A stretch of 64,000 bases of DNA from an uncultured Clostridium sp. Lineage in GTDB: Bacteria > Bacillota_I > Bacilli_A > RF39 > UBA660. The notes under the pieces are model-generated. The model saw only the letters and a program-made list of their open reading frames with translations. It did no database searches and was not told the DNA's origin. Shown piece by piece: positions 902-19,874 of the stretch. Position 1 is the first letter of the stretch. The number at the start of each line of letters is the position of its first letter. The translations under genes were made by a program, and so were the position numbers. The stretch spans positions 15,021-79,020 of the forward strand of contig CANEGO010000005.1 of NCBI GenBank assembly GCA_947427095.1, read 5' to 3'.

Positions 902-1267
902 TTATTTTTTTCTTCTTGTTTGAATAGCAAAATATGTTTGAGCAAGAGCAATAACCGACTTTCTACTATCCCCATTTTGAGCAATTAAGTAGCAAGCATA
1001 TCTAGATAGCTTATAATCTTTCTGTTTTCTATATGCTCGCGAACCAATTGCTACCATTTTACTAGCATCAATAAAATGGTAGGTAGCATTAAAATCACTA
1101 TTTTCACAGGCTGTAATTGACTTATTAATTATTTTTTCAAAATTTTGCCAATTTGAATATTGTAATATAGGCATTAACTCTCTTGCTAACCAATACTCAT
1201 TACCATACTCATCAATATGTTTAATACTATGAAATACCATATCATTATGTAATTCTAACTTACTCAT
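902..1267 (-). CDS. DinD-like (DNA-damage-inducible protein D / Bro-N-like) protein; track ORF extends to 1351
   Basis: C-terminal motif LSRYACYLIAQNGDSRKSVIALAQTYFAIQTRRKK and YWLARELMPILQY resemble the E. coli DinD N-terminal region as recalled from memory. Start placed at the internal ATG (1267) because GGAGA lies 8 nt upstream; the 1351 start has no usable SD. Confidence 0.5.
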   Translation of the reverse strand: MSKLELHNDMVFHSIKHIDEYGNEYWLARELMPILQYSNWQNFEKIINKSITACENSDFNATYHFIDASKMVAIGSRAYRKQKDYKLSRYACYLIAQNGDSRKSVIALAQTYFAIQTRRKK

Positions 1268-1573
1268 TTTTAATATCTCCATCCTTATTAGTTTTATATT
1301 AAATTCATAAATTGTGTTTTTTGTTTCATTTGACAACAAATATCTCGGCATCTAACATAATTTGTTTCTCCATTATTTAACATATTAAATTTTCTTTTTT
1401 TCTTCTATTTCATACATAGTATCACTTATTTGATAAAGATTATTGTTTTGTTATAAATATTTATTAAATGAAAAAACCTAATTTACATAAAGTAAAATTA
1501 GGTTTTGAATGACCTAGAGCTTCTAAAGTTTTCTAAGCACCACTCATTTATATTATACTTTTAATTTGTTATT

Positions 1574-2455
1574 TTATACATTAGGATAACCCATTATTCT
1601 TAATATATCATTTATATTTATAGATTCTAATTTACTACTCAGCTTTTTTATTTCATTATTTATAGAATTAATTAATTCATTATACATCTCATAATTTAAA
1701 ATTAATTTTAGTGTTCTTAATATCATATATAGATTTGTTGAATTACCACTTACTAAATAATTTTTATCAATCACTTTAAAACCTAGTGTATATTTATCCC
1801 TAAAACAGAAAAGCCTATCTGAATGAGCTGCTATATTGCGAATACTTGTTAAATTTTTTAATATCTGTTTCAGTAATTTATCAGATATTTTAAAATATTT
1901 AGCAATCATTTGTCTATCATTTTGTTTTAATAATCCATAATAACTACTTGCAACACCAAAAGTTAAAATTTTCATTAATACAAATGGTGGTACATATCCA
2001 TATTTATCTTTATAGTGCGTTATTGCTGAATGAACTTTATAATTATGATCTATTTCATCATTGATTCTATTAATTAAATTTTCTTTTATTTTTATATTAA
2101 CCTTACTATCCAAATTATTTATATTTAAATAATCTTGTAAACCATATACTTTAGAAATTTGGTTAGCCATTAAAGACTTAATTATTGTTTCTATTTCTAA
2201 AGCATATTTTAAAATTATATATTTTAAATTTTTATCAAAATCATATAAAGCATATATTTCATCAAAAGTAACATTAGGTAGATAATTACCATTTCTATCT
2301 TTAAAATTATATTTATAGCTATTTACTATGGAATAATAAGTATATTTTTCAATTTTGTTAATTGCATCTTGTTTATCTTTAACAATTACATTTTTAGATA
2401 CCAAATATTCAATTAATTGTTCATTACTCTTATATTCTTTCATTAAATCCCCCAA
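1574..2455 (-). CDS. Abi_2 family (AbiD/AbiF-like) abortive-infection protein
   Basis: 293-aa ORF with Abi_2-like features (FG..L hydrophobic core, RNIAAHSDRLF motif). GGGGGA SD lies 4 nt before the ATG. Family call rests on remembered motif patterns. Confidence 0.55.
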   Translation of the reverse strand: MGDLMKEYKSNEQLIEYLVSKNVIVKDKQDAINKIEKYTYYSIVNSYKYNFKDRNGNYLPNVTFDEIYALYDFDKNLKYIILKYALEIETIIKSLMANQISKVYGLQDYLNINNLDSKVNIKIKENLINRINDEIDHNYKVHSAITHYKDKYGYVPPFVLMKILTFGVASSYYGLLKQNDRQMIAKYFKISDKLLKQILKNLTSIRNIAAHSDRLFCFRDKYTLGFKVIDKNYLVSGNSTNLYMILRTLKLILNYEMYNELINSINNEIKKLSSKLESININDILRIMGYPNV

Positions 2456-2464
2456 TAGATAAAA

Positions 2465-2503
2465 AATGACCAGGGGCTTCTAAAGTTTCCCTGGCACTAC
2501 TCA
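2465..2503 (-). terminator. Hairpin GCCAGGG-loop-CCCUGG followed by U7 on the minus strand; terminator of the gatCAB operon and/or attenuator in the abi leader
   Basis: Minus strand reads GCCAGGGAAACUUUAGAAGCCCCUGGUCAUUUUUU. It lies downstream of the gatB stop and downstream of a TTGACA-17-TATATT promoter (2510-2538). Confidence 0.6.
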
Positions 2504-2567
2504 ATATGTAATATATCAATTTTTTATATTACTGTCAATAATTTATAATCTAAAATTTCAAAATCTG

Positions 2568-3992
2568 CTATTTATTATAATTAGCAAGTTCTTCTCTTAG
2601 CATTTCCATCGTTTTAGCTGGATTTGCTTTACCACGAGTCTTTTTCATAACCTGTCCAACAAAGAAATCTATCATTCTTGTTTTTTCAGGATTATATTCT
2701 CTTGCTTGTTCATCATTTTCTTTTAATACTTCCATAACAACATCATGAATAGCAGCGTCATCAGTTATTTGCATCATACCTTTTTCCTTAACGATAACGT
2801 TAGGTTCTTTACCTGATTCTATCATATCTTCAAATACTTCTTTAGCTTGTTTTGAGGATATTGTTTTGCTATCAACTAAATCAATTAACGCTTTTATCAT
2901 AGCTGGCTTAACAGGTACATCTTCTATTTTCATTTCATTAGTGTTTAAGTATCCCATAAGCATACCAGTAACCCAGTTACAAGCTTTTTTAGGATCAGCA
3001 CCTAACTCAACACATTCGTTAAAGAAGTCTGAGTTTTCTTTAACTTTAACTAATACTTCTGCATCATACTTAGAAAGTTCATATTCATCCATGTACTTTC
3101 TTACTCTATCTAATTGAAGCATAGGAATTGTTTTTCTAATTTCTTCTAACATTTCGTCAGTTACATCAGTTGGTGCAATGTTTGGTTCGATAAAGTATTT
3201 ATAATCAACTGCATCAGCTTTATCTCTCATCTTGAAAGTCTCTCCAGTTTCATCATCAAAACGTCTTGTTTCTTGTTCTACTTTACCACCATTTTGAAGA
3301 ATTTCAGTTTGTCTTTCAATTTCATAATCAATTGCACGACCAACGTTATAAAATGAGTTAATGTTTTTCATTTCAACTTTAGTACCTAACTTCTCAGAGT
3401 CTGAAATTGATACGTTAACGTCACATCTCATTTGACCTCTATCACTTCTAGCTTCTGATACACCACAGTAAACGATTAATGAACGATATGTCTCTAAGAA
3501 AGTTAAAGCTTCTTCTTTAGAATGTAAACAAGGCTCTGTTACTGTTTCTAAAAGTGGAACACATGCTCTGTTATAATCTATTAAAGAATATGTATCATAG
3601 TGATCAAGGGACGCTGTATCTTCTTCTAAGTGAGTATCATGAATATCTACTCTTTTAATCTCACCATCCACATCAATATCTACATAACCATTTATACCAA
3701 CTGGTTTAGTCATTTGTGTTATTTGGTATCCCTTTGGTAAATCTGGATAGTAATAGTTTTTTCTATCAAAGATTATTTCATCAGGAGTTGTACAATTCAT
3801 TGCCATAGATACCTTTAAAGCTCTTTTAACAGCTTCTTCATTTGCTACTGGTAAGATACCTGGAAAACCTAAATCTTGGTATGCTACGTGTGAGTTTGGC
3901 GCTTCTGTATATCCATTTATAGCAGGAGAAAATACTTTTGAGTTTGATTCTAATTCACAGTGAACTTCTAGTCCAATTGTTACTTTATACAT
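2568..3992 (-). CDS. gatB: Asp-tRNA(Asn)/Glu-tRNA(Gln) amidotransferase subunit B
   Basis: 474-aa ORF beginning MYKVTIGLEVHCEL, with a GatB-like C-terminal domain. Confidence 0.95.
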   Translation of the reverse strand: MYKVTIGLEVHCELESNSKVFSPAINGYTEAPNSHVAYQDLGFPGILPVANEEAVKRALKVSMAMNCTTPDEIIFDRKNYYYPDLPKGYQITQMTKPVGINGYVDIDVDGEIKRVDIHDTHLEEDTASLDHYDTYSLIDYNRACVPLLETVTEPCLHSKEEALTFLETYRSLIVYCGVSEARSDRGQMRCDVNVSISDSEKLGTKVEMKNINSFYNVGRAIDYEIERQTEILQNGGKVEQETRRFDDETGETFKMRDKADAVDYKYFIEPNIAPTDVTDEMLEEIRKTIPMLQLDRVRKYMDEYELSKYDAEVLVKVKENSDFFNECVELGADPKKACNWVTGMLMGYLNTNEMKIEDVPVKPAMIKALIDLVDSKTISSKQAKEVFEDMIESGKEPNVIVKEKGMMQITDDAAIHDVVMEVLKENDEQAREYNPEKTRMIDFFVGQVMKKTRGKANPAKTMEMLREELANYNK

Positions 3993-3993
3993 A

Positions 3994-5433
3994 TTACTTT
4001 TCCTCCCTTACGTTAAGTGGTACAAAACCAATTTTTTCTTCTAATGCTGCAGCCATGTTAATAACTGTGCTATCGGTTTTTATTGGACCGGATATGTTAA
4101 TTGCAACTGGCATACCTTCTACCATTCCAGATGGAATTGAAATTGAAGGAAAACCACCAAAGTTAGAAATTACCATGTTTTCTGCAAATAGCAAATAGTT
4201 ATCTGACATAACGTCACTAGTTTCTCCAAAATGTGGAGCGATAGTGTTAGTATTTGGCATAATGCATCCATCGTATTTTTCAAATAACTCATTCATTTTA
4301 TCAACGATTAATCTTCTAATTCTCCCGGCGTTCTTAAATAGCTTTTCTTGGTTTTCTTTTTGAAGAATAAATGACCCTAAAACAAATCTTCTTCTAATCA
4401 ATTCTGAGAAACCTTCGGTTCTAGTATTAATCATAACCTCAGCCGGAGTAGACCCACCTTTTCTATTTCCAAAAGGAATACCAGTAAGGTTCGAGTTATT
4501 ACTAGTTGCTTCAGCACAAGAAATTGCCATATAAGAAGGATATAAACTTCTTAAAATATTTTCATCTATACTTTCTTCTACAACTTCCATACCACATTCT
4601 TTAGCATATTCTATAATTTTCATAAAGTTATCATAAAACTCTGGAGTATTTTTTAACTCATCGTTTAACTCTTTAATGTAGAATAATTTCTTTCCTTTAA
4701 CGTCAGTAGTATAACTATCTACTAAGTTAATGTTAGATGAATCTATTGATGTCATATCTCTTTCATCTATTCCTTTAATTGCATCAATTACGTATGCAAC
4801 ATCTTTTACTTTTCTTGTAAAACATCCTACGTGGTCCATACTAGATGCAAAGGCAAATAATCCCCATCTAGATACTAAACCGTACGTTGGTTTATATCCT
4901 ACAACACCACAGTATCCAGCAGGTTTACGAATAGAGTCCCCTGTATCAGTACCTAGTGCGTAAGGTACGATTCCTTTTGCTACTGCTGCGGCAGATCCAG
5001 CAGAAGATCCAGCTGTTTGTCTTGTAATATCCCATGGGTTTCTTACAACACCAGTATGACCAGTAGTTCCTGTTCCACCCATTCCAAGTTCATCCATAAC
5101 GGTTTTACCCATCATAACAGCACCAGATTCTTTTAACTTTTCAATACAAGTTGCATCAAATACTGGAACATAATCAGCTAAAATGTTTGATGATGCGGTA
5201 GTTAAAACTCCCTTAGTTGATAAGTTATCTTTAATAGCACATGGAATACCAGATAATACGTTATCAGTTATTTCTTCTTCCTTAGCATCATCTAAGATAG
5301 TTACGAAGCTATTTAGCTCTTCTTGCGAAGCGTGAGCTCTTTCTAACGCTTCTTTAGTCAATTCTCTACTAGTTACCTTACCTTCTTTTAAGGCTGCATG
5401 TATTTCTTCTAAACTTTTATCTAAATAACTCAT
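3994..5433 (-). CDS. gatA: Asp-tRNA(Asn)/Glu-tRNA(Gln) amidotransferase subunit A (amidase family)
   Basis: 479-aa amidase-signature protein (GGSSGGSAAAVA, Ser-cisSer-Lys context) immediately between gatC and gatB. Confidence 0.95.
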   Translation of the reverse strand: MSYLDKSLEEIHAALKEGKVTSRELTKEALERAHASQEELNSFVTILDDAKEEEITDNVLSGIPCAIKDNLSTKGVLTTASSNILADYVPVFDATCIEKLKESGAVMMGKTVMDELGMGGTGTTGHTGVVRNPWDITRQTAGSSAGSAAAVAKGIVPYALGTDTGDSIRKPAGYCGVVGYKPTYGLVSRWGLFAFASSMDHVGCFTRKVKDVAYVIDAIKGIDERDMTSIDSSNINLVDSYTTDVKGKKLFYIKELNDELKNTPEFYDNFMKIIEYAKECGMEVVEESIDENILRSLYPSYMAISCAEATSNNSNLTGIPFGNRKGGSTPAEVMINTRTEGFSELIRRRFVLGSFILQKENQEKLFKNAGRIRRLIVDKMNELFEKYDGCIMPNTNTIAPHFGETSDVMSDNYLLFAENMVISNFGGFPSISIPSGMVEGMPVAINISGPIKTDSTVINMAAALEEKIGFVPLNVREEK

Positions 5434-5738
5434 TATTCTTCACCTCCAACTACTTTTGGAACTTTAACTTCATCATAGATTGTTTCATGTGCGTTTTTAA
5501 CTGCATCTTCAGTAGTTAAAGTACTTGTGGCTTCATCTTTTCTTAATTTAGCATCCTTATTTCTAAATGGAAAAGTCATAGGTTCTACCTTTTCTATTCC
5601 TTCTATTTTTCCAATTAAGTCCATTTGTTTTATTATTGTTTCAAACTCTTTTTCAAAAGTATCAAACTCTTCATCTTTCATCTTAAACATTAATTTTAAT
5701 GCATAATCTTGAATGTTTTCTCTTGTTATTTTTTGCAT
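5433..5738 (-). CDS. gatC: Asp-tRNA(Asn)/Glu-tRNA(Gln) amidotransferase subunit C
   Basis: 101-aa ORF overlapping the gatA start by 1 nt, in the canonical gatCAB order. Confidence 0.85.
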   Translation of the reverse strand: MQKITRENIQDYALKLMFKMKDEEFDTFEKEFETIIKQMDLIGKIEGIEKVEPMTFPFRNKDAKLRKDEATSTLTTEDAVKNAHETIYDEVKVPKVVGGEE

Positions 5739-5753
5739 CCTTTATCCTCCTTT

Positions 5754-6449
5754 TTAATTACTTTGATTTCTTTCTATAATTATATCACTAACCGTTAAAT
5801 TTATATTATTAAATACGTTACTAATAATAACTTCTGCAACATCATCTGGATTCATAAACGTATGTTGCTTTTCTAATGAAACATAATCCCTACTATTTTT
5901 ATAGAAGTTAGTATTTATTCCACCTGGATATACGCCTATTACTTTTACGCTGGTTCCTTTATAGGCTACTTTTAAGCTTTCTGTATAACCTTTTTCTCCC
6001 CATTTAGTTGCACAATAAACACTTTCACCTTTATTTCCTCTTAAGGCAGCAGAACTCATTACATTAGCTATTCTTATATTTTCTTCTTTTATTTTAAGTA
6101 AATTACCAGTAAGCATAATCATTCCATATAGACCTTTAAAACAAGTATCTATATCTTTTTTTACATAGTCCTTAGGTAATTTAAATGATGGTTCTCCGGC
6201 ATTATTAATAAGGCCAATTATATTCCCTTTTTTATTTATATCATTTACAGTATTAATAATAAATTCTTCATCTGATATATCACCATTATAAACATAAACT
6301 TTATCTATATAAGTATTTTTTAATTCATTCGAGGCCTCTTTATCTTGATCAATTACACATACATAATAACCTTGATTAATTAGCTTCTTAGTTAATGATA
6401 AACCTAATCCGTTAGCTCCACCACTAACTATTACTATATCTTTGTTCAT
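5754..6449 (-). CDS. SDR family NAD(P)-dependent oxidoreductase
   Basis: N-terminal VSGGANGLG glycine motif and catalytic Y-x3-K (YCATK). Confidence 0.8.
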   Translation of the reverse strand: MNKDIVIVSGGANGLGLSLTKKLINQGYYVCVIDQDKEASNELKNTYIDKVYVYNGDISDEEFIINTVNDINKKGNIIGLINNAGEPSFKLPKDYVKKDIDTCFKGLYGMIMLTGNLLKIKEENIRIANVMSSAALRGNKGESVYCATKWGEKGYTESLKVAYKGTSVKVIGVYPGGINTNFYKNSRDYVSLEKQHTFMNPDDVAEVIISNVFNNINLTVSDIIIERNQSN

Positions 6450-6451
6450 AG

Positions 6452-7285
6452 CTATACCTCTATTTCTTCCATGTCATCTGGAACAATTACGTTTCCATTA
6501 AAATATTTTTTCCCTTCAGCCTCATATAATTTTTTTCTATCATTACCATGATTTTCCTGCGTATGAAATAGAATTAAATTTTTTACGTTTAAATTATTCA
6601 TAATATCACAAGCATGTTTTACTGTTGAATGCTGTTTTTCATAAGCATGAAATATGTTTTCTTCTGATTCTAAGCACATTGCCTCATGCATAACATAATC
6701 AGAATCTTTTACAATATTATTTAATTCTGGATTCAAAGTAACATCTCCTAAAAAAGTTAACGTTTTATTATTTATTACACACTTAAACCCATACAATTTT
6801 ACCGATTTATTCCTAACATCAAAAAAAGTATATTTAATTCCATTTATTTCAACAACTTCATTGTTTTCTAAAATGTGAAAATTAACATTATCATGTATTA
6901 AATTTACTAATTTTTTCGGTAATACTTGATTTGATACCTCATTTATTGCAGTGTATACAACATCATTACAATATACATTAATATCTTTTTTTATTTCATC
7001 GTGCATTGCCATTACACCAATTTTTTTAAACATCCATATAAGACCTAAAATATGATCAGTATGAGCATGAGAAATAAATATATGATTTATATCACTTAGT
7101 GATATATTAAGGTTATTCAACCTTTTTCTTATTTCAATACTACCACCGGTATCAACTAAAAAATTACCACTATCATTTTTTATAAGAAAGCATGTATTAT
7201 ATAAGTCCATAGTACCACCAGCACCAGTACCCAACATAATAATTTTATTCATAATTTTCTCCTGTAGTTTCCTATTATTCACCAA
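6452..7285 (-). CDS. MBL-fold metallo-hydrolase
   Basis: HAHTDH metallo-beta-lactamase motif; tightly linked to its neighbours. Confidence 0.75.
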   Translation of the reverse strand: MVNNRKLQEKIMNKIIMLGTGAGGTMDLYNTCFLIKNDSGNFLVDTGGSIEIRKRLNNLNISLSDINHIFISHAHTDHILGLIWMFKKIGVMAMHDEIKKDINVYCNDVVYTAINEVSNQVLPKKLVNLIHDNVNFHILENNEVVEINGIKYTFFDVRNKSVKLYGFKCVINNKTLTFLGDVTLNPELNNIVKDSDYVMHEAMCLESEENIFHAYEKQHSTVKHACDIMNNLNVKNLILFHTQENHGNDRKKLYEAEGKKYFNGNVIVPDDMEEIEV

Positions 7286-7850
7286 TATATCCTAAAATTT
7301 CGTCAAACTGCTTTGAATATTCTTCATAATATTTTTCTAAATCCTCTTTGGCCTTTGGTAAAGATAATATATTATATTTTTCGTTTAATTTATATTTTAA
7401 TTGTGTTACTTGCTCTTTAAAGTCACTAGTTCTTTTAGCTAAAACACCAGCATATGTAAATACACCAACTGGATGAATAAATCTATAACAATCAGCATTA
7501 GCACATACTTCTGCTTCCGTACATGTAAAAGGTATTTTACCATGGTGGGCTTCTATACAATTTATTAACTTATCTTTCTCTTCTTTAGTTAAATCATATT
7601 CTTCAAGGAATTCTTTAGCAAAATCTGAAGCCATTTTAACGTGTTCTGAAGCTTTATTTAACTTGTGAGCTTCTCCTAGTTTTATATCCATCAAACAAAC
7701 TCCTATTGTTACAAAATCTTCATCAACATTATACTCTTTTGCTAACATCCTTCCTTTTACTAACGAAATATCAAGATGATTCTTTACTGGTGGCGTATTT
7801 TCACTTGCCATTTTTAATACATCTTCTAATAATTGTTCTTTATTTTTCAT
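7275..7850 (-). CDS. HD-domain phosphohydrolase-like protein
   Basis: H...HD-type motifs (EAHHGK). AGGAGG SD upstream of the start. Confidence 0.65.
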   Translation of the reverse strand: MKNKEQLLEDVLKMASENTPPVKNHLDISLVKGRMLAKEYNVDEDFVTIGVCLMDIKLGEAHKLNKASEHVKMASDFAKEFLEEYDLTKEEKDKLINCIEAHHGKIPFTCTEAEVCANADCYRFIHPVGVFTYAGVLAKRTSDFKEQVTQLKYKLNEKYNILSLPKAKEDLEKYYEEYSKQFDEILGYIGE

Positions 7851-7890
7851 ATAGTCCTCCTATTTATAAAAAACATAATTTACAATATCA

Positions 7891-8307
7891 CTATATTTTT
7901 TCTACTCTTATTGGTTGTGATCCTTCAGAACATAGTTTAGCAGCTTCAATAGCAAATTCTGATAAGCCTTCTGTTATCATTCCTATTGCAGCACCGTTTT
8001 GAAAACCAGTTGGACCAAAACACCATCCTCTATCGTACCATAAGTCAAAACCTACATCATTTCCTCCTAAAGGCATAATAATTATTTCACCAATTGATGG
8101 TAAGCAAGTTTCATTTTCATGTTCGTATTTAGGAAAATTTGAAAGTTTTGTCCATATTTCGCTTCCGGCCCATTTTGCATGCAATGCATCTTGTTCAAAT
8201 GGTAATACCTTAAGTAAGCTATCAATTACAGTTGGACATTTATCATCACGTAATTCAGCAACAACGCTTACTCCACTCTTAACTAATGTTATTTTTATTT
8301 TTGTCAT
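7891..8307 (-). CDS. Hypothetical protein, possibly DUF3830/cyclophilin-like (start moved to the internal ATG with a GAAGGAGA SD)
   Basis: The track ORF 7891..8367 has a better start at MTKIKITL: GAAGGAGA lies 8 nt upstream. Family assignment is from memory only. Confidence 0.45.
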   Translation of the reverse strand: MTKIKITLVKSGVSVVAELRDDKCPTVIDSLLKVLPFEQDALHAKWAGSEIWTKLSNFPKYEHENETCLPSIGEIIIMPLGGNDVGFDLWYDRGWCFGPTGFQNGAAIGMITEGLSEFAIEAAKLCSEGSQPIRVEKI

Positions 8308-8338
8308 AAAAATATCTCCTTCAATTTTATTTTTATAT

Positions 8339-9385
8339 CTAAAAAGGTAATTTACCTTGATATACATATATCCAAGAATAATTATTACTTATATTAGTAA
8401 GCTTATTATTTAATTTAACTTTAACTAATTTATCTTTTATTTGATTGCATTGTTTTCTTGAAATAATTTTTTCAATTATTCTATCTTCTCTTATTTCTAA
8501 AATTCCCATACCAGCCCAGAAATCTACCATCGAAGATTTATTAGATGCTAAGTGAAGCCATGCCTCTCCTCCAGCTCCTAATCCAAATGAACCAAGTAAA
8601 GGTATTAAGTTTTCTTTTTCAAAATATTCTTTACCTCGTAATTCATAATCCATATCTAAAAATGCTTCATTCAGAATCCTCGAGTTATAAATAAACTTAT
8701 TTTTTTCTTCTTCACTAATATTAGTTAAATCTTCTTTGCCATTCCACATTATATTAGTTTCAGCTCTTTTTAATCTAATTTTCTTTTCTTCTTCGTCAAG
8801 TAACGAAAATCTTTTTTCTACTTCTTTTTTATAATCTTTCATTTTAGATAATAGTTCTTCTTTATCATAAAAGTCTCTTGCTAATACAAGACTTAAATTA
8901 ATTGGATAATTATTATTTTCATTAATATATGAAATTATTTTTTTAAATGTATTATTATATTTATCCATCCCATCTTGAGGTGTATTATTCATGTAAGTTA
9001 ATGCTACTTCTTCAGATTCAAACTCAATGTTAACCCCATTATTATAAGTCATGGCTATTGGTAAAACGTATTCTATTAAATACTTTATTGTAAATATTTC
9101 TGCCCAATCAGGTTCAGGATACGTAGGGCTCCAAAAATGCTTATATCCACCAAAGCAGTAACAGAATAAGAAGGCTAAGTTATTATTTAAAATATTATCA
9201 ACTTTTTCTTCTGTATACTTTTTAGCTTCTTCAAATTGTGCTTTACGAGACCATTTTCTAGAAAATAATCTATTTAAAACCTTTTGCTTATAATTATTTC
9301 CTATTAACTCTCCTAATTTAATATTATTAAAATCTAAAAGTTCATTATTTACATAATCATTTACCATTTTTTCTAAGTCTTGCAT
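8339..9385 (-). CDS. Hypothetical protein (348 aa), no family recognised
   Basis: Long ORF with an AAGGTGA SD, inside the tightly packed minus-strand gene run. Confidence 0.6.
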   Translation of the reverse strand: MQDLEKMVNDYVNNELLDFNNIKLGELIGNNYKQKVLNRLFSRKWSRKAQFEEAKKYTEEKVDNILNNNLAFLFCYCFGGYKHFWSPTYPEPDWAEIFTIKYLIEYVLPIAMTYNNGVNIEFESEEVALTYMNNTPQDGMDKYNNTFKKIISYINENNNYPINLSLVLARDFYDKEELLSKMKDYKKEVEKRFSLLDEEEKKIRLKRAETNIMWNGKEDLTNISEEEKNKFIYNSRILNEAFLDMDYELRGKEYFEKENLIPLLGSFGLGAGGEAWLHLASNKSSMVDFWAGMGILEIREDRIIEKIISRKQCNQIKDKLVKVKLNNKLTNISNNYSWIYVYQGKLPF

Positions 9386-9394
9386 TTAATCACC

Positions 9395-9757
9395 TTATTT
9401 CATATCTTCTTCACTAATTAACTTGCATTGTTCTTTATACCAAGCTGGTGTACAAATCATAATTATTTTACAATTACCTTTCCAGTAGTAAACTTCTTCT
9501 TTATCAATTAATAGTAAGTCTCCTTGATTAAATTCAAGATACTCATCTTTTTTATTAAGAAGGCCACTACCTTCTAATATATAAGCTAATTCTTTACACT
9601 TAGTATTACTACAATAACCAGTTTCTGGGTATCTACCGTTTATAGTGTTTATAGCAAAGTCAATATCTTTATCATTTAATTCAACTGAGTATTCTAATAG
9701 TTTGCTAGTATCACTATTGGTAATGTTAACAGCTTTATCTTTTGTTACTATTTTAAT
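9395..9757 (-). CDS. Cupin-domain protein ORF with no canonical start (possible ATT start, or pseudogene); open frame runs 9395..9772
   Basis: 125 stop-free codons ending in TAA at 9395, encoding cupin-like motifs (GRYPETGY...LEGSG...YYWKG). There is no ATG/GTG/TTG in frame. An ATT lies 7 nt after AAGGA, and the frame opens inside the last codons of aspS. Confidence 0.3.
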   Translation of the reverse strand: MKIVTKDKAVNITNSDTSKLLEYSVELNDKDIDFAINTINGRYPETGYCSNTKCKELAYILEGSGLLNKKDEYLEFNQGDLLLIDKEEVYYWKGNCKIIMICTPAWYKEQCKLISEEDMK

Positions 9758-9768
9758 ACAGCTATCCT

Positions 9769-11511
9769 TTATCTTAACTTAATATGAGTTTCTCTTAGTT
9801 GTAATTCAGTAACTTCATTTGGAGTACCAGTAAGTACGTCTTCACCATTTTGGTTTAATGGGAATGCAACTGTTTCTCTTACGTTATCTTCTTCTAATAA
9901 CATCATAAGTGATCTATCAATACCAAGTGCCATTCCTACGTGTGGTGGACATCCATATTGGAATGCTGTGTATAAAGCACTGAATTTCTTCTTTATATCT
10001 TCTTCTGTGTATCCAGCAAGTTCAAAAGCTTTAACTAATACTTCTGGTCTGTTATTTCTAACAGCTCCTGATACAAGTTCTACACCATTACATACAACGT
10101 CAAATTGGTCTGCATATATTTCTAGTGGATCTTCGGTTTCTAATGCTTTTTCTCCACCTCTTGGCATACTAAATGGGTTATGCATAAAGTCTAATTTACC
10201 AGTTGTTTCACTTATTTCATACATTGGCATATCAGTTATGAAACAAAATTCAAATCTAGAGTTATCAATGATATCTAACTTTCTTCCTAATTCATCTCTT
10301 ATTAAACCGGCGTTTTTACATACAACTGCTTCTCTTTTATCAGCGATAAAGAATAATACGCTGCCTACTTTTAAGTCTGCTTTTTCAAATAATGCATTTC
10401 TATCTTCTTCTGTTAAGAACTTATCAATTGGTCCTTTTAAAGACTTATCTTCTTGAACAGTTATATAACCAATACCAGGCATGTCAATTGATTTAGCATA
10501 ATCAACTAATTCATTAAACCAGCTGTTTGGTTTAGATGCGATTGTCTCTACCTTTATTGCTCTTACGATTGAATCTCTAAATGGTCTAAATTCAGTTTCT
10601 TTAAATACTTCTGATACATCAATTATTTCAAGTGGATTTGTTAAGTCTGGTTTATCAGTACCATATTTAAGCATTGATTCCCTATAAGGTATTCTTCTAA
10701 AGTGTCCTTCAGTTACACTTCTTTTACCAAACTCTTTAAAGAATGCAGGAAATACTGTTTCAGCTACTTCCATAATATCTTCTTGGTCTGCGAAAGCCAT
10801 TTCCATATCTAATTGATAGAATTCTCCAACTAATCTATCTCTTCTTCCATCTTCATCTCTAAAACATGGCGCAAGTTGGAAATATTTATCAAATCCTGAA
10901 GCCATTAACAATTGTTTAAATTGTTGTGGTGCTTGTGGAAGTGCGTAAAACTTTCCTTTATGCTTTCTCGATGGAATTATAAAGTCTCTAGCACCTTCTG
11001 GTGATGATGATGTAAGAATTGGTGTTGTAACTTCTAAGAAGCCTAATTCTTGCATCTTATTTCTTAAGAAGTTAAATGCTTTTGATCTTAAGATTATGTT
11101 TTCATGTACCTTTGGATTTCTTAAGTCTAAGAATCTGTATTTTAATCTAACATCTTCTGCTACCTTTTTAGATTCATCTACTTCAAATGGTAATACTTTA
11201 GCCGTATCAGATAGTAATTCTAGTGAGTCTGCTACTACTTCTATTTCTCCTGTAGTAAGTTTTTTATTAACTGTTTCCTCATCTCTTTTAATTACTTTAC
11301 CAGTTATTTTAATAACTGTTTCTTTACTTACTCCTTTTAGCATAGCATCATCATGTACAACAACTTGTGTTACTCCATAATGATCTCTTAAGTCAACGAA
11401 CATAACTCCACCATGGTCTCTTACGCCCTGTACAAAACCTGATAAAGTAACGTCCTTATCTAAATCTTTTATTGTTAATTCTCCGCATGTATTTGTTCTA
11501 TATTTACTCAT
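9769..11511 (-). CDS. aspS: Aspartate--tRNA ligase (probably non-discriminating, given co-located gatCAB and an Asn T-box)
   Basis: 580-aa class II aaRS with an N-terminal OB fold and the FRDED, QLDMEM and GGLAMGIDR-type motifs. Confidence 0.95.
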   Translation of the reverse strand: MSKYRTNTCGELTIKDLDKDVTLSGFVQGVRDHGGVMFVDLRDHYGVTQVVVHDDAMLKGVSKETVIKITGKVIKRDEETVNKKLTTGEIEVVADSLELLSDTAKVLPFEVDESKKVAEDVRLKYRFLDLRNPKVHENIILRSKAFNFLRNKMQELGFLEVTTPILTSSSPEGARDFIIPSRKHKGKFYALPQAPQQFKQLLMASGFDKYFQLAPCFRDEDGRRDRLVGEFYQLDMEMAFADQEDIMEVAETVFPAFFKEFGKRSVTEGHFRRIPYRESMLKYGTDKPDLTNPLEIIDVSEVFKETEFRPFRDSIVRAIKVETIASKPNSWFNELVDYAKSIDMPGIGYITVQEDKSLKGPIDKFLTEEDRNALFEKADLKVGSVLFFIADKREAVVCKNAGLIRDELGRKLDIIDNSRFEFCFITDMPMYEISETTGKLDFMHNPFSMPRGGEKALETEDPLEIYADQFDVVCNGVELVSGAVRNNRPEVLVKAFELAGYTEEDIKKKFSALYTAFQYGCPPHVGMALGIDRSLMMLLEEDNVRETVAFPLNQNGEDVLTGTPNEVTELQLRETHIKLR

Positions 11512-11527
11512 TATTTATCATTCCTTT

Positions 11528-12406
11528 CTAATCATATTGGTTAGCTAATTGGTCGATTGTAGTTCCACCAGTCGCTTTCCAATCTATTTTTATATCATCA
11601 AATTCTTTACTTCTAAAATCATTTAATATTTTATAGTCTTCTTTTTCCATTTCAAAATTTAATGATTCCAAATTTTCCTTAATTCTATTTATATTTGTAC
11701 TTTTTACAAGTGGTATAATATGTTTTTCTTTAATTATCCAATTTAATATTATCTGATTTTGAGTTTTTTCATATTTTTTAGATAATTTTAATAAACAATT
11801 ATAATTTCTAAGTGCCGTTCTATTTCTTCTTAATGGTTGATAACATATAAATTGTATATTATTCTTTTTACAATAATCAATAATACCTATATCTTCATAT
11901 ATTTTACATTCTAAATTATATATACCTTCAAAAAAGTCTATTTTTGAAACTTTCTGTATATCCTTTAGTTGCTCCATACTAACATTACTTACACCTATAT
12001 ATCTTACTTTCTTATTTTCTACTAATTCATTTATTTTAGAATATACATCTTTCAATGGAATGTCTGAGAAAAATGGAGCATGGATTTGAATACTATCAAC
12101 ATAATCTATATTTAAAATACTTAAATATTCATTAAGTTGCTTTTCAACATCATCCTTAACTTTAATTGTAGGCTCCAAATTAACATTAATAAATAAATTG
12201 TTTCTTCCTACCTTATCAATAAACTCTTTCATTTTCCTAACAACATTGCCATCATTATATAACATATATAAAGATAAATAATTTTGTCCTTTTTCAAAAG
12301 AATATTTTAAAGTCTTTATTTCTTTAGAAAAATTTTCAAAATCAATGGTCCATGTTCCAATTCCTATTGGAAATATATCTTTTTTGTCTAACATTTTAGT
12401 TTTCAC
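11528..12406 (-). CDS. Aldo/keto reductase family protein
   Basis: 292-aa ORF with AKR-like features. Overlaps the upstream cupin gene by 11 nt. Confidence 0.65.
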   Translation of the reverse strand: MKTKMLDKKDIFPIGIGTWTIDFENFSKEIKTLKYSFEKGQNYLSLYMLYNDGNVVRKMKEFIDKVGRNNLFINVNLEPTIKVKDDVEKQLNEYLSILNIDYVDSIQIHAPFFSDIPLKDVYSKINELVENKKVRYIGVSNVSMEQLKDIQKVSKIDFFEGIYNLECKIYEDIGIIDYCKKNNIQFICYQPLRRNRTALRNYNCLLKLSKKYEKTQNQIILNWIIKEKHIIPLVKSTNINRIKENLESLNFEMEKEDYKILNDFRSKEFDDIKIDWKATGGTTIDQLANQYD

Positions 12407-12794
12407 TTTCTAACTTTTTTATTGGCAAGTCTCTTAAAGACTTTTGAATCTCACTTCCAGCTTGTGGTGCAAAAATATATAACTGCTCTAATTCTTCATC
12501 AGAATCATTTGCATGGGCATGCATTATTCCTTCTGGAATTAATACACAGTCTCCTTTTTTCAAAATATATTCTGTTCCATCTTCTAGTTTTAACTTTCCT
12601 TCTCCCCTTAGCATATAAATGACTTCTTCAAAGTCTCTTTTATGCATAGCAGTAGAATTCTTAGCTGGAATTGTAACAGTTCCTAAATCTAAGTTTTTAG
12701 CACCTGTCATTTTATCTAATAAGATACTAAGTGTTAGTCCATTTCCAAAATCTTTTATCTCTGTTTTTTCTTTTTCTATTAATTTAATATTCAT
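12396..12794 (-). CDS. Cupin-domain protein
   Basis: 132-aa ORF with a cupin_2-like His cluster (GIMHAHAND). Confidence 0.65.
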   Translation of the reverse strand: MNIKLIEKEKTEIKDFGNGLTLSILLDKMTGAKNLDLGTVTIPAKNSTAMHKRDFEEVIYMLRGEGKLKLEDGTEYILKKGDCVLIPEGIMHAHANDSDEELEQLYIFAPQAGSEIQKSLRDLPIKKLESEN

Positions 12795-12812
12795 CTTTAT
12801 TTTCCTTTCAAA

Positions 12813-13487
12813 TTAATAATTTTCTACGTCTTTAATTCCAAACTCTGGAATTATTACATCATCATCGCATTCTGTTATGAATTTTACTGCTTTAGCTACT
12901 TTTTCTGTTTCTAATCCAGTTGATGTATCATAATCATTTCCAGCTTTCTTAAATAAATCCGTTTGCATAAATCCTGGATAAAAACCAGTAACTTTTATAT
13001 TTTCTTTACTAAGTACTCTTTGTATCGAACGATTAAAGCCTCTCATAGCCCACTTAGAAGCATTGTATACTGCACTAAAATCATCATTATCAAAGCTTGA
13101 TTGTGAACATACATTTATAATCAATCCGCTCTTTTTATTTCTCATTATATGTAATACTGCCTTAGTCATATAAATAGGAGCTTTTGTATTGACATCAATA
13201 CAATCAGATATTTGTTCAAAAGTATTTTCTTCTAAATCTCCTGCTAACCATATACCAGCATTATTAATTAATATATCTACGTCGCCAATTTCTTTTACTA
13301 TACTTTCGATTCTATTATAATCCTTTAAATCGCAAACGTAATACTTACAATTTAATTCAGTAGCTAATGTTTTTAATTTTTCTTCATTCCTTGATATTAA
13401 TATTAAGTTCTCATCTTTTAATTCTCTTGCAATTGATTCTCCCAAACCATCACTTGCACCCGTTATAATTATGTTTTTCATATTCAT
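12813..13487 (-). CDS. SDR family oxidoreductase
   Basis: TGASDGLG and YNASK motifs. Confidence 0.8.
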   Translation of the reverse strand: MNMKNIIITGASDGLGESIARELKDENLILISRNEEKLKTLATELNCKYYVCDLKDYNRIESIVKEIGDVDILINNAGIWLAGDLEENTFEQISDCIDVNTKAPIYMTKAVLHIMRNKKSGLIINVCSQSSFDNDDFSAVYNASKWAMRGFNRSIQRVLSKENIKVTGFYPGFMQTDLFKKAGNDYDTSTGLETEKVAKAVKFITECDDDVIIPEFGIKDVENY

Positions 13488-14737
13488 TCCATCACTCTTT
13501 CTTTTATAAATTTCACTATTTCATCTTCAGCAAAATTACCATCTACAAATATTGGAACTTCATTACCGTAAATATCTATTCCTATTATGCTTAAATCACT
13601 TGTTCCAACCATGAAATCAACATGATTTTTACTTCTGTTTATTCCATTTTTCAATAACTCTCTATCACTCATAACATCACCATTAGGTATACATTTAGGA
13701 AATCCTCTACCTAGTGCCAAGTGACATGATGCATTTTCATCAATCAATATAGAGTTAAATATAATATTTGTTTTTGATATTGGAGAATTATAATCAACTA
13801 ATGCGCACTCTCCCAAAAAGTTCATACCTTCGAATTCTTCCATTAGCTCTAATAATTTATCTTCGTTATTACTAGCCCAAACTTTTTCTACTTTACCATT
13901 TTTAAAAGTTAGTTTAAACTTATCAATTATTTTGCCTTTAATAACTATTGGTCTGCTAGAACAAACTGTTCCATTCACTTTGTTTTTATCTGGTGTTGTA
14001 TAAACTTCTTCAGTTGGCATGTTAACGATTAAATCTTTTTTACCATCAAAACTTTTCTTAGCAGCTCCCCACCATATTACATCCTTTGGAAGACCTATTT
14101 CTAAATTAGTTCCTAACCCGTTTTTATATTTTAATTTAGAAAGTTTTAGTTCATTTAATAAATTTCTTCTTTCTGTGTTTGTTTTTATTTTCTCATTCCA
14201 AGCTTTAATCGGATCTTCTTTATCAATTAAGGTACACTTAAATATAATATTCCACAACTCATCTTCTGAATTAAGGTCTAATTTATCAGCCCACTCTTTT
14301 GTTGCAACTGCCGCTATACACCATGGATACTTATAAATACCTCTTGCTGCTACTGCATTTTCCTGCGTATCAACTTTAATTTTATTCATTAACGTCTTTT
14401 TTTCTAAAGGCACATTATCTAATGTTGATTTGCTATACGATGTTAAGGATAACAATGACCCGCCTTTATCATAAACCTCTTTTATTATAGTTCTATCAAA
14501 ATAAGGTTCTTTTTCTATTTCTTCTAAAGTAGAATTCATTAATATATCTCTTGTCTTTTCACCATCATATTCTACGTCGTATATTCCTGTTATTCCAAGT
14601 TTTTTTGCCTCTTCTTTTACGATATTAACAAATTCTTTTTGTTCTGTTAAATAAATAAGTAATAGTGGTTCCCCAACATTCATAGATAAACATCTGGTTA
14701 ATAAAAATCTAGCATACTTTCTTTTTTTATCATCCAT
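13484..14737 (-). CDS. M29-family aminopeptidase (PepS/AmpS-like); the track's N-terminal extension to 14815 is rejected
   Basis: Start placed at ATG 14737 (MDDKKRKYARFLL) with AAGGAGG 8 nt upstream. The extra upstream codons in the track ORF overlap the T-box terminator. Confidence 0.75.
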   Translation of the reverse strand: MDDKKRKYARFLLTRCLSMNVGEPLLLIYLTEQKEFVNIVKEEAKKLGITGIYDVEYDGEKTRDILMNSTLEEIEKEPYFDRTIIKEVYDKGGSLLSLTSYSKSTLDNVPLEKKTLMNKIKVDTQENAVAARGIYKYPWCIAAVATKEWADKLDLNSEDELWNIIFKCTLIDKEDPIKAWNEKIKTNTERRNLLNELKLSKLKYKNGLGTNLEIGLPKDVIWWGAAKKSFDGKKDLIVNMPTEEVYTTPDKNKVNGTVCSSRPIVIKGKIIDKFKLTFKNGKVEKVWASNNEDKLLELMEEFEGMNFLGECALVDYNSPISKTNIIFNSILIDENASCHLALGRGFPKCIPNGDVMSDRELLKNGINRSKNHVDFMVGTSDLSIIGIDIYGNEVPIFVDGNFAEDEIVKFIKERVME

Positions 14738-15008
14738 CACTAAAACCTCCTTATAAATTAAAAAACAGCAAATCATCCCCATAGGGACGAATGCTGTTTG
14801 TATCCGTGGTACCACCCAGTTTATTATTCTTAAAGAATAATCACTTTATGAAATAATAACGGTTTTTCTTCCGTCTTAGCCTACTTTATAAATTTCGGTA
14901 AGATACTCCGAGGTGTTCTTTCTTTAAATTATCTTACTGATATTCCACCACCATCAGCTCTCTTTTAAGAATCATTTAAATACTTTTCCTCATCAACGTC
15001 TTTAAATA
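14738..15008 (-). ncRNA. T-box riboswitch leader, specifier codon probably AAC (Asn), with intrinsic terminator at 14761-14801
   Basis: Read on the minus strand: a K-turn (UGAUGAGG...CCUCGGAGUA), a specifier loop GAAAGAACA closed by CCUC, a distal loop GGUGGUGGAAU, the T-box sequence ACUGGGUGGUACCACGG, and a terminator ACAAACAGCAUUCGUCCCUAUGGGGAUGAUUUGCUGUUUUU. Confidence 0.75.
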
Positions 15009-15015
15009 TACTTAA

Positions 15016-15043
15016 ATTATATCATATTTTTATTATTTTACAA
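15016..15043 (-). promoter_or_regulatory. Sigma-A promoter TTGTAA-16-TGaTATAAT driving the T-box leader
   Basis: Sequence read on the minus strand ~45 nt upstream of the Stem I K-turn. Confidence 0.55.
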
Positions 15044-15130: not shown

Positions 15131-15160
15131 AAAAAGAAAAAAGTAGCTTAAAGCTACTTT
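15131..15160 (-). terminator. Rho-independent terminator after tRNA-Asn
   Basis: AAAGUAGCUUUAAGCUACUUUUUUCUUUUU read on the minus strand. Confidence 0.6.
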
Positions 15161-15170
15161 TAATTTCATA

Positions 15171-15246
15171 TGGCGCTTCAAGTAGGACTCGAACCTACGA
15201 CCTGCCGGTTAACAGCCGGATGCTCTACCGACTGAGCTATTGAAGC
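15171..15246 (-). tRNA. tRNA-Asn (anticodon GUU)
   Basis: 76-nt cloverleaf GCUUCAAUAGCUCAG...CUGUUAA...GGUUCGAGUCCUACUUGAAGCGCCA. A TTGACA-17-TATAAT promoter lies at 15281-15309. Confidence 0.9.
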
Positions 15247-15387
15247 ATTATGTCGGTTTCCTCTTTCAAGGTACAAACAAATTATATATTAATTAAAATA
15301 CTTTGTCAACAACTTTTTTCAAATATGTGTTTACATATTTCTATTATATGATAAAATACAAATCATATTAAAAAAGTTGGTGATATT

Positions 15388-16116
15388 TTGAAAACCATTA
15401 ATTTTGAAGATTTATATTTTACTGATAATGATATTTATTCTTCTGGAACATATGGAAATATTAAAAAATGCCTTTTCAATGGTAAAACATATGCTTGTAA
15501 AGAATTTAAAGATCCCTTTTATTTAGTTGGAAAAAGGCTTTTAATAGAAGAATTAAGTGATATTCAACATGAAAGTTTATATACTCCGGAATTTTGGGTA
15601 AAAAAAGATGGTGAAACAAATAGATACTTAACTGACTTTTGCACAGGTAAAGATATAGATTCATATAGTGATTATCCAATTAATGAAAAAATTAAAATAT
15701 TAAAACATACTAAAAACTTAATTTTATCAATGCATGAGGAAGGAATAATCCATGCAGATTTAATAGGCTCTAACATTATGGTGGAAAACGCTTCTCCTTG
15801 TATTATAGATTTCGATAACGCAAGCTATAAAAATCATAAAACTTGTATATATGATGTATGTGATTTATCCCAAGCATTTATTAAAGCATACGGAATAAAA
15901 AAGGAAATTGATACTTTTATTTTTAATATATTAACTTTTTCAATAATAAATGAATGTGAATTTTATTTATGCCGTAAAAATGTTTTTCTTAATAACCTTG
16001 GTTATTTTAATAATAGTGATTCAAAGAAAATATGTGATAGCTTCTTTTTGGATACAAAAGTACCTAACAAAGATTTCCTAATAGATACAATAGATGAAAC
16101 TAATTTTACTCCTTAG
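15388..16116 (+). CDS. Protein kinase-like family protein (atypical; HADLIGSNIMV catalytic loop, DFD motif)
   Basis: TTG start with GGTGA 6 nt upstream. A TTTACA-16-TGaTAAAAT promoter lies at 15330-15357. Confidence 0.55.
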   Translation: MKTINFEDLYFTDNDIYSSGTYGNIKKCLFNGKTYACKEFKDPFYLVGKRLLIEELSDIQHESLYTPEFWVKKDGETNRYLTDFCTGKDIDSYSDYPINEKIKILKHTKNLILSMHEEGIIHADLIGSNIMVENASPCIIDFDNASYKNHKTCIYDVCDLSQAFIKAYGIKKEIDTFIFNILTFSIINECEFYLCRKNVFLNNLGYFNNSDSKKICDSFFLDTKVPNKDFLIDTIDETNFTP

Positions 16117-19791: not shown

Positions 19792-19866
19792 TTGGTTGCC
19801 TCGGCAAGATTCGAACTTGCGCATGTCAGAGTCAAAGTCTGATGCCTTACCACTTGGCGACGAGGC
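19792..19866 (-). tRNA. tRNA-Gln (anticodon UUG)
   Basis: UGCCUCGUCGCCAAGUGGUAAGGC...CUUUGAC...CGAGGCAACCA. Confidence 0.9.
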
Positions 19867-19874
19867 AATCTAAA

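Follow-up and report, generated by a model that had tools for sequence, protein, structure and literature searches.

Why should genes predicted to supply a cell with Asn-tRNA(Asn) be interleaved with ten other genes, most of them for small oxidoreductases, hydrolases and cupin proteins? The question is raised by a 64-kb window of DNA (the whole stretch analyzed, 64,000 nucleotides of about 28% GC) from an uncultured Clostridium sp., in which aspS, encoding aspartyl-tRNA synthetase (AspRS), and gatC, gatA and gatB, encoding the GatCAB amidotransferase, are embedded in a packed run of minus-strand genes extending from position 14737 down to 2568 behind a T-box leader with an asparagine (Asn) specifier. 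Gene coordinates are window positions throughout. Saad and colleagues are said to have described, in 2012, a T-box(Asn)-controlled aspS-gatCAB transamidation operon in C. acetobutylicum, and the core of the present run, consisting of an Asn T-box, aspS and gatCAB, is an operon of this known kind. The reading favored here, with a probability of roughly two in three, is that the whole run forms one transcription unit for Asn-tRNA(Asn) supply that carries strain-variable passenger genes.

Packing and control of the run

Open reading frame (ORF) calls and family searches agree with the gene families listed in the original prediction, which was made from the sequence alone, and place 14 genes in the run (Table 1); that prediction had announced 15, although its own list also held 14. 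The genes aspS, gatC, gatA and gatB are intact within one unit. The aspS product scores 729.7 bits against the NCBIfam aspS model, and the gatCAB products match the Pfam families GatC, Amidase, GatB_N and GatB_Yqey. All 13 junctions are at most 40 nt long, ranging from -4 (or -11) to +40 nt, with -4 as the lower end if the likeliest starts are taken, and M29 and SDR1 overlap by 4 nt (ATGA). A Shine-Dalgarno-like sequence precedes each of the 14 genes. This includes the cupin ORF that had been noted for having no canonical start, cupinB, which begins with ATT 7 nt after AAGGA and whose ortholog in a related locus, L001, has ATG at the same codon.

Because nearly every gene in the window lies on the minus strand, co-directionality alone is ordinary here, and it is the packing that is special. 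Junctions of 40 nt or less make up 13 of 13 in the run versus 19 of 48 elsewhere in the window (naive p of about 6e-6), where the longest stretch of tight junctions is four. Independent assemblies from several sequencing runs (L125-L130) repeat the gene order, and an assembly artefact was rejected on finding the same order in six independent runs.

The predicted Asn T-box in front of the run was recovered with the Rfam covariance model RF00230, which matches positions 14780-15005 over the full length of the model with 148.6 bits against a threshold of 93. The specifier stands in the context GAAAG-AAC-A-CC, with AAC followed by a purine (A), and the T-box sequence GGGUGGUACCACGG precedes a mutually exclusive terminator hairpin with a U-run. 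The AAC specifier is invariant in five aligned leaders and was pattern-matched in six more, and lineages whose proteins are as little as about 55% identical still have an Asn T-box upstream of aspS-gatCAB. The T-box bulge reads UGGU, which would form only a G-U wobble with the discriminator base G73 of the tRNA(Asn).

A terminator scan of the minus strand from 14773 to 2568 returned no terminator-like site, in agreement with the expectation that none would occur before the hairpin at about 2503-2465; this hairpin itself escaped the scanner because of its 13-nt loop. Promoter-like hexamers are uninformative either way, with 88 found and 88.5 expected by shuffling, and examples within the run lie at 13816-13787, 11655-11628, 7400-7371 and 6244-6217. 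A strong promoter-like site (TTGACA-17-TATATT with TG, 2510-2538, minus strand) is located upstream of the hairpin that follows gatB, so this hairpin would also sit in the leader of an AbiD transcript.

In the proposed mechanism, a promoter at about 15043-15016 would drive the Asn-specific leader, which would terminate at 14790-14773 unless bound by uncharged tRNA(Asn), encoded immediately upstream. Binding would stabilize the antiterminator and permit read-through, after which a non-discriminating AspRS would place Asp on tRNA(Asn) and GatCAB would amidate the Asp to Asn. Non-discrimination is presumed for this AspRS from the Asn T-box and from the presence of asnS in the same position in L135. 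The passengers would be single genes that lack promoters, received at two insertion sites, one between T-box and aspS and the other between aspS and gatC. They would borrow the transcription of the operon, and each would be translated from a ribosome-binding site of its own. Co-transcription on a single transcript would be expected because the junctions leave no room for intergenic promoters or terminators.

Table 1. Coordinates and properties of the run, its leader region and the S66 genes of related loci (window positions unless a locus is given)
Feature	Position	Strand	Remarks
Promoter-like site of tRNA-Asn gene	15281..15309	-	TTGACA-17-TATAAT, 12/12 matches
tRNA-Asn(GUU) gene	15171..15246	-	G1-C72, G73; presumed T-box effector and substrate of the operon's enzymes
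Terminator-like hairpin and U-run	15139..15161	-	behind tRNA-Asn gene
Promoter-like site of T-box leader	15016..15043	-	TTGTAA-16-TATAAT with TG extension
T-box leader	14773..15005	-	specifier AAC (Asn); T-box sequence GGGUGGUACCACGG; terminator 14790-14773 and U-run
M29 (AmpS/PepS-type) aminopeptidase	13484..14737	-	first gene after T-box; absent from compact relatives
SDR oxidoreductase 1 (SDR1)	12813..13487	-	passenger; no counterpart in L125, fused to M29 in L144
Cupin_2 protein (cupinA)	12396..12794	-	passenger
Aldo/keto reductase (AKR)	11528..12406	-	passenger; ATG 12394 a possible alternative start
aspS	9769..11511	-	bacterial-type AspRS with GAD domain; presumably non-discriminating
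Small cupin-like ORF (cupinB)	9395..9757	-	120 aa, ATT start
348-aa protein	8339..9385	-	isonitrile-synthase (PvcA/IsnA) fold; passenger
DUF3830 protein	7891..8307	-	138 aa counted from internal ATG; passenger
191-aa protein	7275..7850	-	weak HD-domain match; passenger
MBL-fold hydrolase	6452..7252	-	similar to RNase Z and Apyc1; passenger
SDR oxidoreductase 2 (SDR2)	5754..6449	-	passenger
gatC	5433..5738	-
gatA	3994..5433	-	amidase subunit
gatB	2568..3992	-	3-10 turn segment RSDR (canonical bacterial GatB: K-M-E-E)
Hairpin CCAGGG/CCCUGG and U-run	~2465..2503	-	13-nt loop; first terminator-like element after gatB
S66 gene, L001	11930-12946
S66 gene, L002	11935-12951
S66 gene, L144	4190-5206
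S66 and GNAT genes, L131	5178-6194 and 7016-7561

The core operon and its variable accessory genes

Related loci, given here by their L numbers, were obtained from comparative searches anchored on the 348-aa protein (genome contigs), on aspS (metagenome contigs) and on GatB homologs. Across them the core of the operon is an Asn T-box, then asnS and/or aspS, then gatCAB. The closest compact case is L137 (aspS 92% and GatB 88% identical), whose operon consists of aspS-gatCAB only and which shares the flanks of the window, namely the DAO-Rieske gene, the divergent kinase-like gene, the tRNA-Asn gene, the T-box and, downstream, Bro-N. In L084 (aspS 88% identical), gatC follows aspS directly. The expansion in the window is indeed unusual relative to a compact aspS-gatCAB arrangement. 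More distant lineages have T-box-aspS-gatCAB (L044, L049) or gatCAB-aspS (L042, L045, L141).

The position after the T-box is exchanged between two synthetase genes. L139 has asnS-aspS-gatCAB behind the same upstream flanks as the window, its asnS (5117-6481) containing one in-frame stop and its aspS-gatCAB being intact. L135 has T-box-asnS (6864-8240)-gatCAB without aspS, L140 has asnS (6400-7788), a VOC gene and then gatCAB, again with no aspS, and in L131 an asnS (3-944) lies upstream of aspS. These loci, which have asnS, aspS or both behind the T-box, may record an exchange in progress between the direct and indirect pathways.

Expanded versions of the operon number at least seven (the window, L125, L001, L002, L144, L131 and L142), no two of them alike, and compact versions number four; L137 and L139 carry no accessory genes at all. 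L125, with a core 97-100% identical, keeps the order of the window without SDR1. The order in L001 is M29, aspS, cupinB, 348-aa, VOC, DUF3830, S66, Ppx, Lactamase_B_3, SDR2, Dabb and gatCAB, and the first part of the order in L002 is M29, PTPS, NUDIX, P-loop, SDR1, cupinA, AKR, aspS, a cupinB remnant, 348-aa, VOC, DUF3830, S66 and MBL. L144 (GatB 95% identical) has M29 fused to SDR1, NUDIX, cupinA, aspS, S66, HD, SDR2, Ppx, Dabb and gatCAB. L131 has asnS, aspS, YunG, PnuC, 348-aa, SnoaL, S66, MBL, GNAT, AF_0155, two unknowns and gatCAB, and L142 has aspS, a 67-aa ORF, Ppx and gatCAB. At L144 1-1458, M29 and SDR1 form a single 641-aa ORF.

Accessory sets thus differ among strains whose core proteins are 95-100% identical (L125, L001, L002, L144), and SDR1 is present or absent between strains that are 97-100% identical (window versus L125). 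In the synteny comparison proposed earlier, the sets vary from strain to strain and are absent from compact relatives. In L002 the place of cupinB (9640-10000) is mostly occupied by unrelated sequence, with 23 C-terminal codons remaining, and this remnant together with the ATT/ATG difference between window and L001 indicates that genes within the operon turn over. At the DNA level, window and L001 form a mosaic: the part running from aspS past gatB is 95-96.5% identical, T-box and M29 are 87.5% identical, and farther upstream the figure drops to 72-77%, a pattern suggestive of recombination or of a transfer of this block. Between M29 and aspS, L001 has a 377-nt stretch in which no remains of the SDR, cupin or AKR genes were seen, and nothing convincing in the way of microhomology was found at the indel that distinguishes window and L125 in SDR1.

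About 25 small hydrolases and oxidoreductases, among them SDR, cupin, AKR, HD, MBL, DUF3830 and the 348-aa protein, make up the pool that the versions share. The non-core genes, M29 probably included, are concluded to come from it and to be gained, lost and replaced at the two fixed sites. Because the sets change from strain to strain, the accessory genes are better understood as strain-variable passengers than as a conserved pathway. An anti-phage defense system was considered and rejected after a PADLOC search, which returned nothing for the nine accessory proteins (M29 excluded) beyond weak generic MBL matches and assigned AbiD solely to the downstream Abi_2 gene.

tRNA-Asn and the GatB turn

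Published work places a condition on the indirect pathway that this operon would serve. Two reports describe bacterial GatCAB as needing the U1-A72 pair of tRNA(Asn) and as rejecting G1-C72 (Bailly et al., 2006, PMC1635274; Nakamura et al., 2010, PMC2811023), and a survey of 547 genera found U1-A72 tRNA(Asn) in 284 of 284 genera lacking asparaginyl-tRNA synthetase (AsnRS; 186/186 plus 98/98) (PMC4206432). The window's tRNA-Asn gene has G1-C72 and G73 instead of the U1-A72 pair, as do 15 of 15 other full-length tRNA-Asn genes that adjoin related operons; the 5'-truncated tRNA-Asn genes of L042 and L045 have C72. The loci compared were window 15171-15246, L001, L002, L044, L047, L049, L135, L137, L139, L141, L042 and L045. 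The window's tRNA-Gln gene (19793-19867) has U1-A72. The relatives' tRNA-Asp genes also have G1-C72, together with A46 and a D-loop consistent with the U20A antideterminant. In the variable loop of the window's tRNA(Asn), G46-U47 correspond to the archaeal amidotransferase determinants; archaeal GatCAB, according to the same two reports, accepts G1-C72 tRNA(Asn) and relies on G46/U47 and the tRNA core, not on the first pair (PMC1635274, PMC2811023).

The enzyme departs from the bacterial norm at the corresponding site. The reader of the first pair is given in PMC2811023 as the 3-10 turn of GatB, K183-M184-E185-E186 in S. aureus, with M184 anchored in the hydrophobic core. The window's GatB, which can be aligned with S. 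aureus GatB over its whole length (E 1e-132), has RSDR at positions 183-186 without a change in length and so does not have the bacterial pattern K183-M184-x-E186. Ser, Thr or Ala occupies the Met position in 114 of 114 motif-bearing homologs among the 120 listed at 61-98% identity, the other 6 of which did not match the motif search pattern, and the same holds for more distant operon-linked GatBs. Among the 150 nearest representatives of 50%-identity clusters, this column holds Met in 126, Leu in 17 and Ile in 2 (145/150), the exceptions being three representatives of the window's clade and two singletons. The clade forms a long branch, its best outside representative being at most 45% identical. 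L048 was examined as a genome with both a canonical and a variant GatCAB and rejected, its upstream gatB fragment belonging to the variant clade.

The anomaly in tRNA and GatB is a correlation only, and it would fit a GatCAB that is independent of the first pair. Tentatively, and with more doubt than belief, it is proposed that the clade may transamidate G1-C72 tRNA(Asn) with a divergent GatCAB without the Met-anchored turn, through archaeal-style recognition and with its own tRNA gene and Asn T-box. This anomaly and the interchange of asnS and aspS are the parts most worth following. If the reading holds, the clade would be a candidate exception to the U1-A72 rule for bacterial tRNA-dependent Asn synthesis, one that comes with a specific GatB residue change and with natural asnS/aspS swaps capturing the change-over between the direct and indirect routes.

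In some distant relatives the tRNA-Asn genes are joined to the operon itself. L141 (7800-8290) has an Asn T-box followed directly by two tRNA-Asn genes and then gatCAB-aspS, an order that apparently places the tRNA genes within a T-box unit or immediately behind one. A hairpin and seven consecutive U separate gatC from the tRNA gene(s) in L141 and L045 (1-120), and in L042 (1-105) a tRNA-Asn gene lies directly upstream of gatC with only a U-run after it.

Weighing of alternatives

Four points weigh against the favored reading of a single Asn-tRNA(Asn)-supply unit with passengers. Internal promoters within coding regions may exist in a genome of 28% GC. Where asnS replaces aspS (L135, L140), the linked gatCAB may serve Gln-tRNA(Gln) only. 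By the published rules, this GatCAB should not accept a G1-C72 tRNA(Asn). Finally, S66, the MBL protein, VOC, Ppx, SDR2 and the 348-aa protein recur across expanded versions, which makes some of the array old and potentially under selection.

The best-surviving alternative, unlikely in itself, holds that the Asn T-box was inherited from an ancestor with asnS in first place, that aspS and gatCAB perform housekeeping for Asp-tRNA(Asp) and Gln-tRNA(Gln), and that an AsnRS encoded elsewhere charges the G1-C72 tRNA(Asn). It is favored by the T-box-asnS-gatCAB loci without aspS (L135, L140), by asnS upstream of aspS in L131 and L139, by the canonical U1-A72 kept in the window's tRNA-Gln and by the Mollicutes (Mycoplasma) and Erysipelothrix, the nearest surveyed taxa named, which have AsnRS and a tRNA(Asn) without U1-A72 (PMC4206432). 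However, the AAC specifier is strictly kept where the operon lacks asnS (window, L001, L002, L137, L142, L044, L049, L141), which argues for selection on the Asn-responsive control of aspS-gatCAB. In addition, it is asnS that carries the stop in L139 and aspS-gatCAB that is intact, tRNA-Asn genes are joined to gatCAB-aspS in L141, L042 and L045, and no asnS lies within the 64-kb window.

Distinctly unlikely is expression of the accessory genes from their own promoters in upstream coding sequence, independently of the T-box, with the packing reflecting general genome compaction. Promoter-like hexamers are indeed frequent in AT-rich DNA, and the genome is compact with nearly all genes co-directional, but the number of promoter-like sites equals the shuffled expectation, junctions of at most 40 nt leave no intergenic room for promoters, and compaction elsewhere in the window yields at most four successive tight junctions against the 13 of the run.

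A further proposal, which is improbable, gives some of the accessory genes a protective role, shielding AspRS from microcin C-type mimics of aspartyl-adenylate. Inhibition of AspRS would raise uncharged tRNA(Asn), open the T-box and so induce AspRS together with detoxifying enzymes. S66 genes lie between aspS and gatC in L001, L002, L131 and L144, and the best PDB matches of their products are MccF-like microcin C immunity proteins; L131 adds a GNAT of the Acetyltransf_3 type, the group of GNATs to which MccE and RimL belong, and many passengers are nucleotide-directed hydrolases (HD, MBL, NUDIX, Ppx/GppA). Against this, the window lacks both the S66 and the GNAT gene, and the S66 family also includes LD-carboxypeptidases, the PDB ranking not being a functional assignment.

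The weakest alternative, which goes back to the original prediction, unites the accessory genes in a single pathway, for amino-acid salvage or for a small molecule, that is deliberately regulated together with Asn-tRNA synthesis. It can draw on their packing under a single riboswitch, on the SDR fusions and second adjoining SDR of some 348-aa homologs and on the fact that three versions (window, L125 and L001) keep cupinB, the 348-aa gene and DUF3830 together. It is very improbable and already largely refuted by synteny, as the genes do not move as a group, every expanded version has a set of its own, L144 has no 348-aa gene, cupinB, DUF3830, MBL or AKR at 95% GatB identity, L137 and L139 have zero accessory genes, 348-aa homologs at 80% identity or less are unlinked to the other genes, and the families are chemically heterogeneous. 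Of the other earlier suggestion, a small-molecule pathway hitch-hiking on the operon, the hitch-hiking is supported and the single pathway gives way to a shuffled pool of unrelated single genes.

If the favored reading of one supply unit with passengers is true, an essential, riboswitch-controlled translation operon would serve as an expression platform for fast-changing, unrelated small genes, and caution would be called for when function is inferred from operon membership in compact genomes.

The 348-aa protein

Family and fold searches had been suggested for the 348-aa protein and gave a divided answer. The Pfam family DIT1_PvcA (PF05141) scores 16.5, below its gathering threshold of 26.4, and a profile search against PDB sequences gave a sub-threshold E of 0.08. 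An AlphaFold2 model (pLDDT 93.9) searched with Foldseek matched 9DHM, 9DH4 and 3E59 over the full length (E 4e-9 to 5e-8, TM 0.53-0.70), with tyrosyl-tRNA synthetases and cyclodipeptide synthases far behind PIsnA/PvcA. Relative to PvcA/IsnA/Dit1 (PF05141; 3E59, 9DH4, 9DHM), the predicted full-length fold is the same and the motifs F-x-x-K, P-D-x-A-E and S-[DE] align, whereas identity is 12-14%, an oxygenase partner is absent and the family consists of a lone gene that is sometimes fused to an SDR. On the basis of the model, the protein is assigned an isonitrile-synthase scaffold; it is not a demonstrated isonitrile synthase.

Residues that are invariant in the family include G79, Y81, K82, H83, W85, P90, D93, E96, S124, E125, N134 and Q312, with the conserved motif FGGYKHFW...PDWAE. 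Members were found in gut Bacilli, Patescibacteria (CPR) and Micrarchaeota/DPANN archaea (e.g. L016-L037; P0106-P0120), and in some organisms the homolog carries an SDR as an N-terminal fusion, another SDR gene lying next to it. Homologs at 80% identity or less lie elsewhere, unlinked to the other accessory genes. In the gut Bacilli and CPR/DPANN loci examined, the gene has no conserved neighbors, those in the CPR/DPANN loci being UPF0102, NUDIX, malic enzyme, radical SAM and EamA genes. An Fe(II)/2-oxoglutarate oxygenase partner (PvcB/IsnB) was found neither in the run nor next to the homologs examined. If this reading holds, the 348-aa protein defines a conserved isonitrile-synthase-fold family that spans gut Bacilli, CPR bacteria and DPANN archaea.

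Flanking regions

The operon is flanked by the kinase-like and DAO-Rieske genes on one side and by AbiD and Bro-N on the other. At 15388-17599, the plus-strand divergent kinase-like gene converges on the DAO-Rieske oxidoreductase gene with an 11-nt overlap, and the two genes are conserved as the operon's upstream flank in L137, L139 and L142. A second strain-variable spot follows gatB (902-2455, minus strand), where the window has AbiD/Abi_2 and Bro-N genes and the near-identical L001 and L126 have ORF6N and alanine racemase genes.

Comparison with known systems

The accessory array resembles integron cassette arrays and flexible genomic islets in that co-directional, promoter-less, single-gene units vary between strains at fixed sites between conserved genes. 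Integron-like cassettes were nevertheless rejected, the junctions of -4 to +40 nt leaving no space for attC and an integrase being absent; unlike an integron array, this one is lodged within a translation operon that is essential.

For a T-box(Asn)-controlled aspS-gatCAB operon, the precedent named in PMC4206432 is its reference 18 (Saad et al., 2012, J Biol Chem 287:20382). The window shares with the C. acetobutylicum operon the Asn T-box, the bacterial-type aspS and gatC, gatA and gatB in one direction, with uncharged tRNA(Asn) as the presumed inducer. It differs in having ten extra genes (four ahead of aspS, M29 among them, and six that separate aspS from gatC), in a tRNA-Asn gene that adjoins the leader, in G1-C72 in place of the U1-A72 with which C. 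acetobutylicum is entered in the survey (PMC4206432), and in a GatB of a divergent clade.

Compared with canonical bacterial GatCAB, the enzyme has the same three subunits and domain structure and no length change in the 3-10 turn segment, whereas its clade has Ser, Thr or Ala in place of the turn-anchoring Met and a tRNA(Asn) without U1-A72. With the archaeal system the window shares the G1-C72 and G46-U47 of its tRNA(Asn), but the enzyme is bacterial by sequence, and where archaeal GatB is 1-3 residues shorter at the turn, here only the residues differ.

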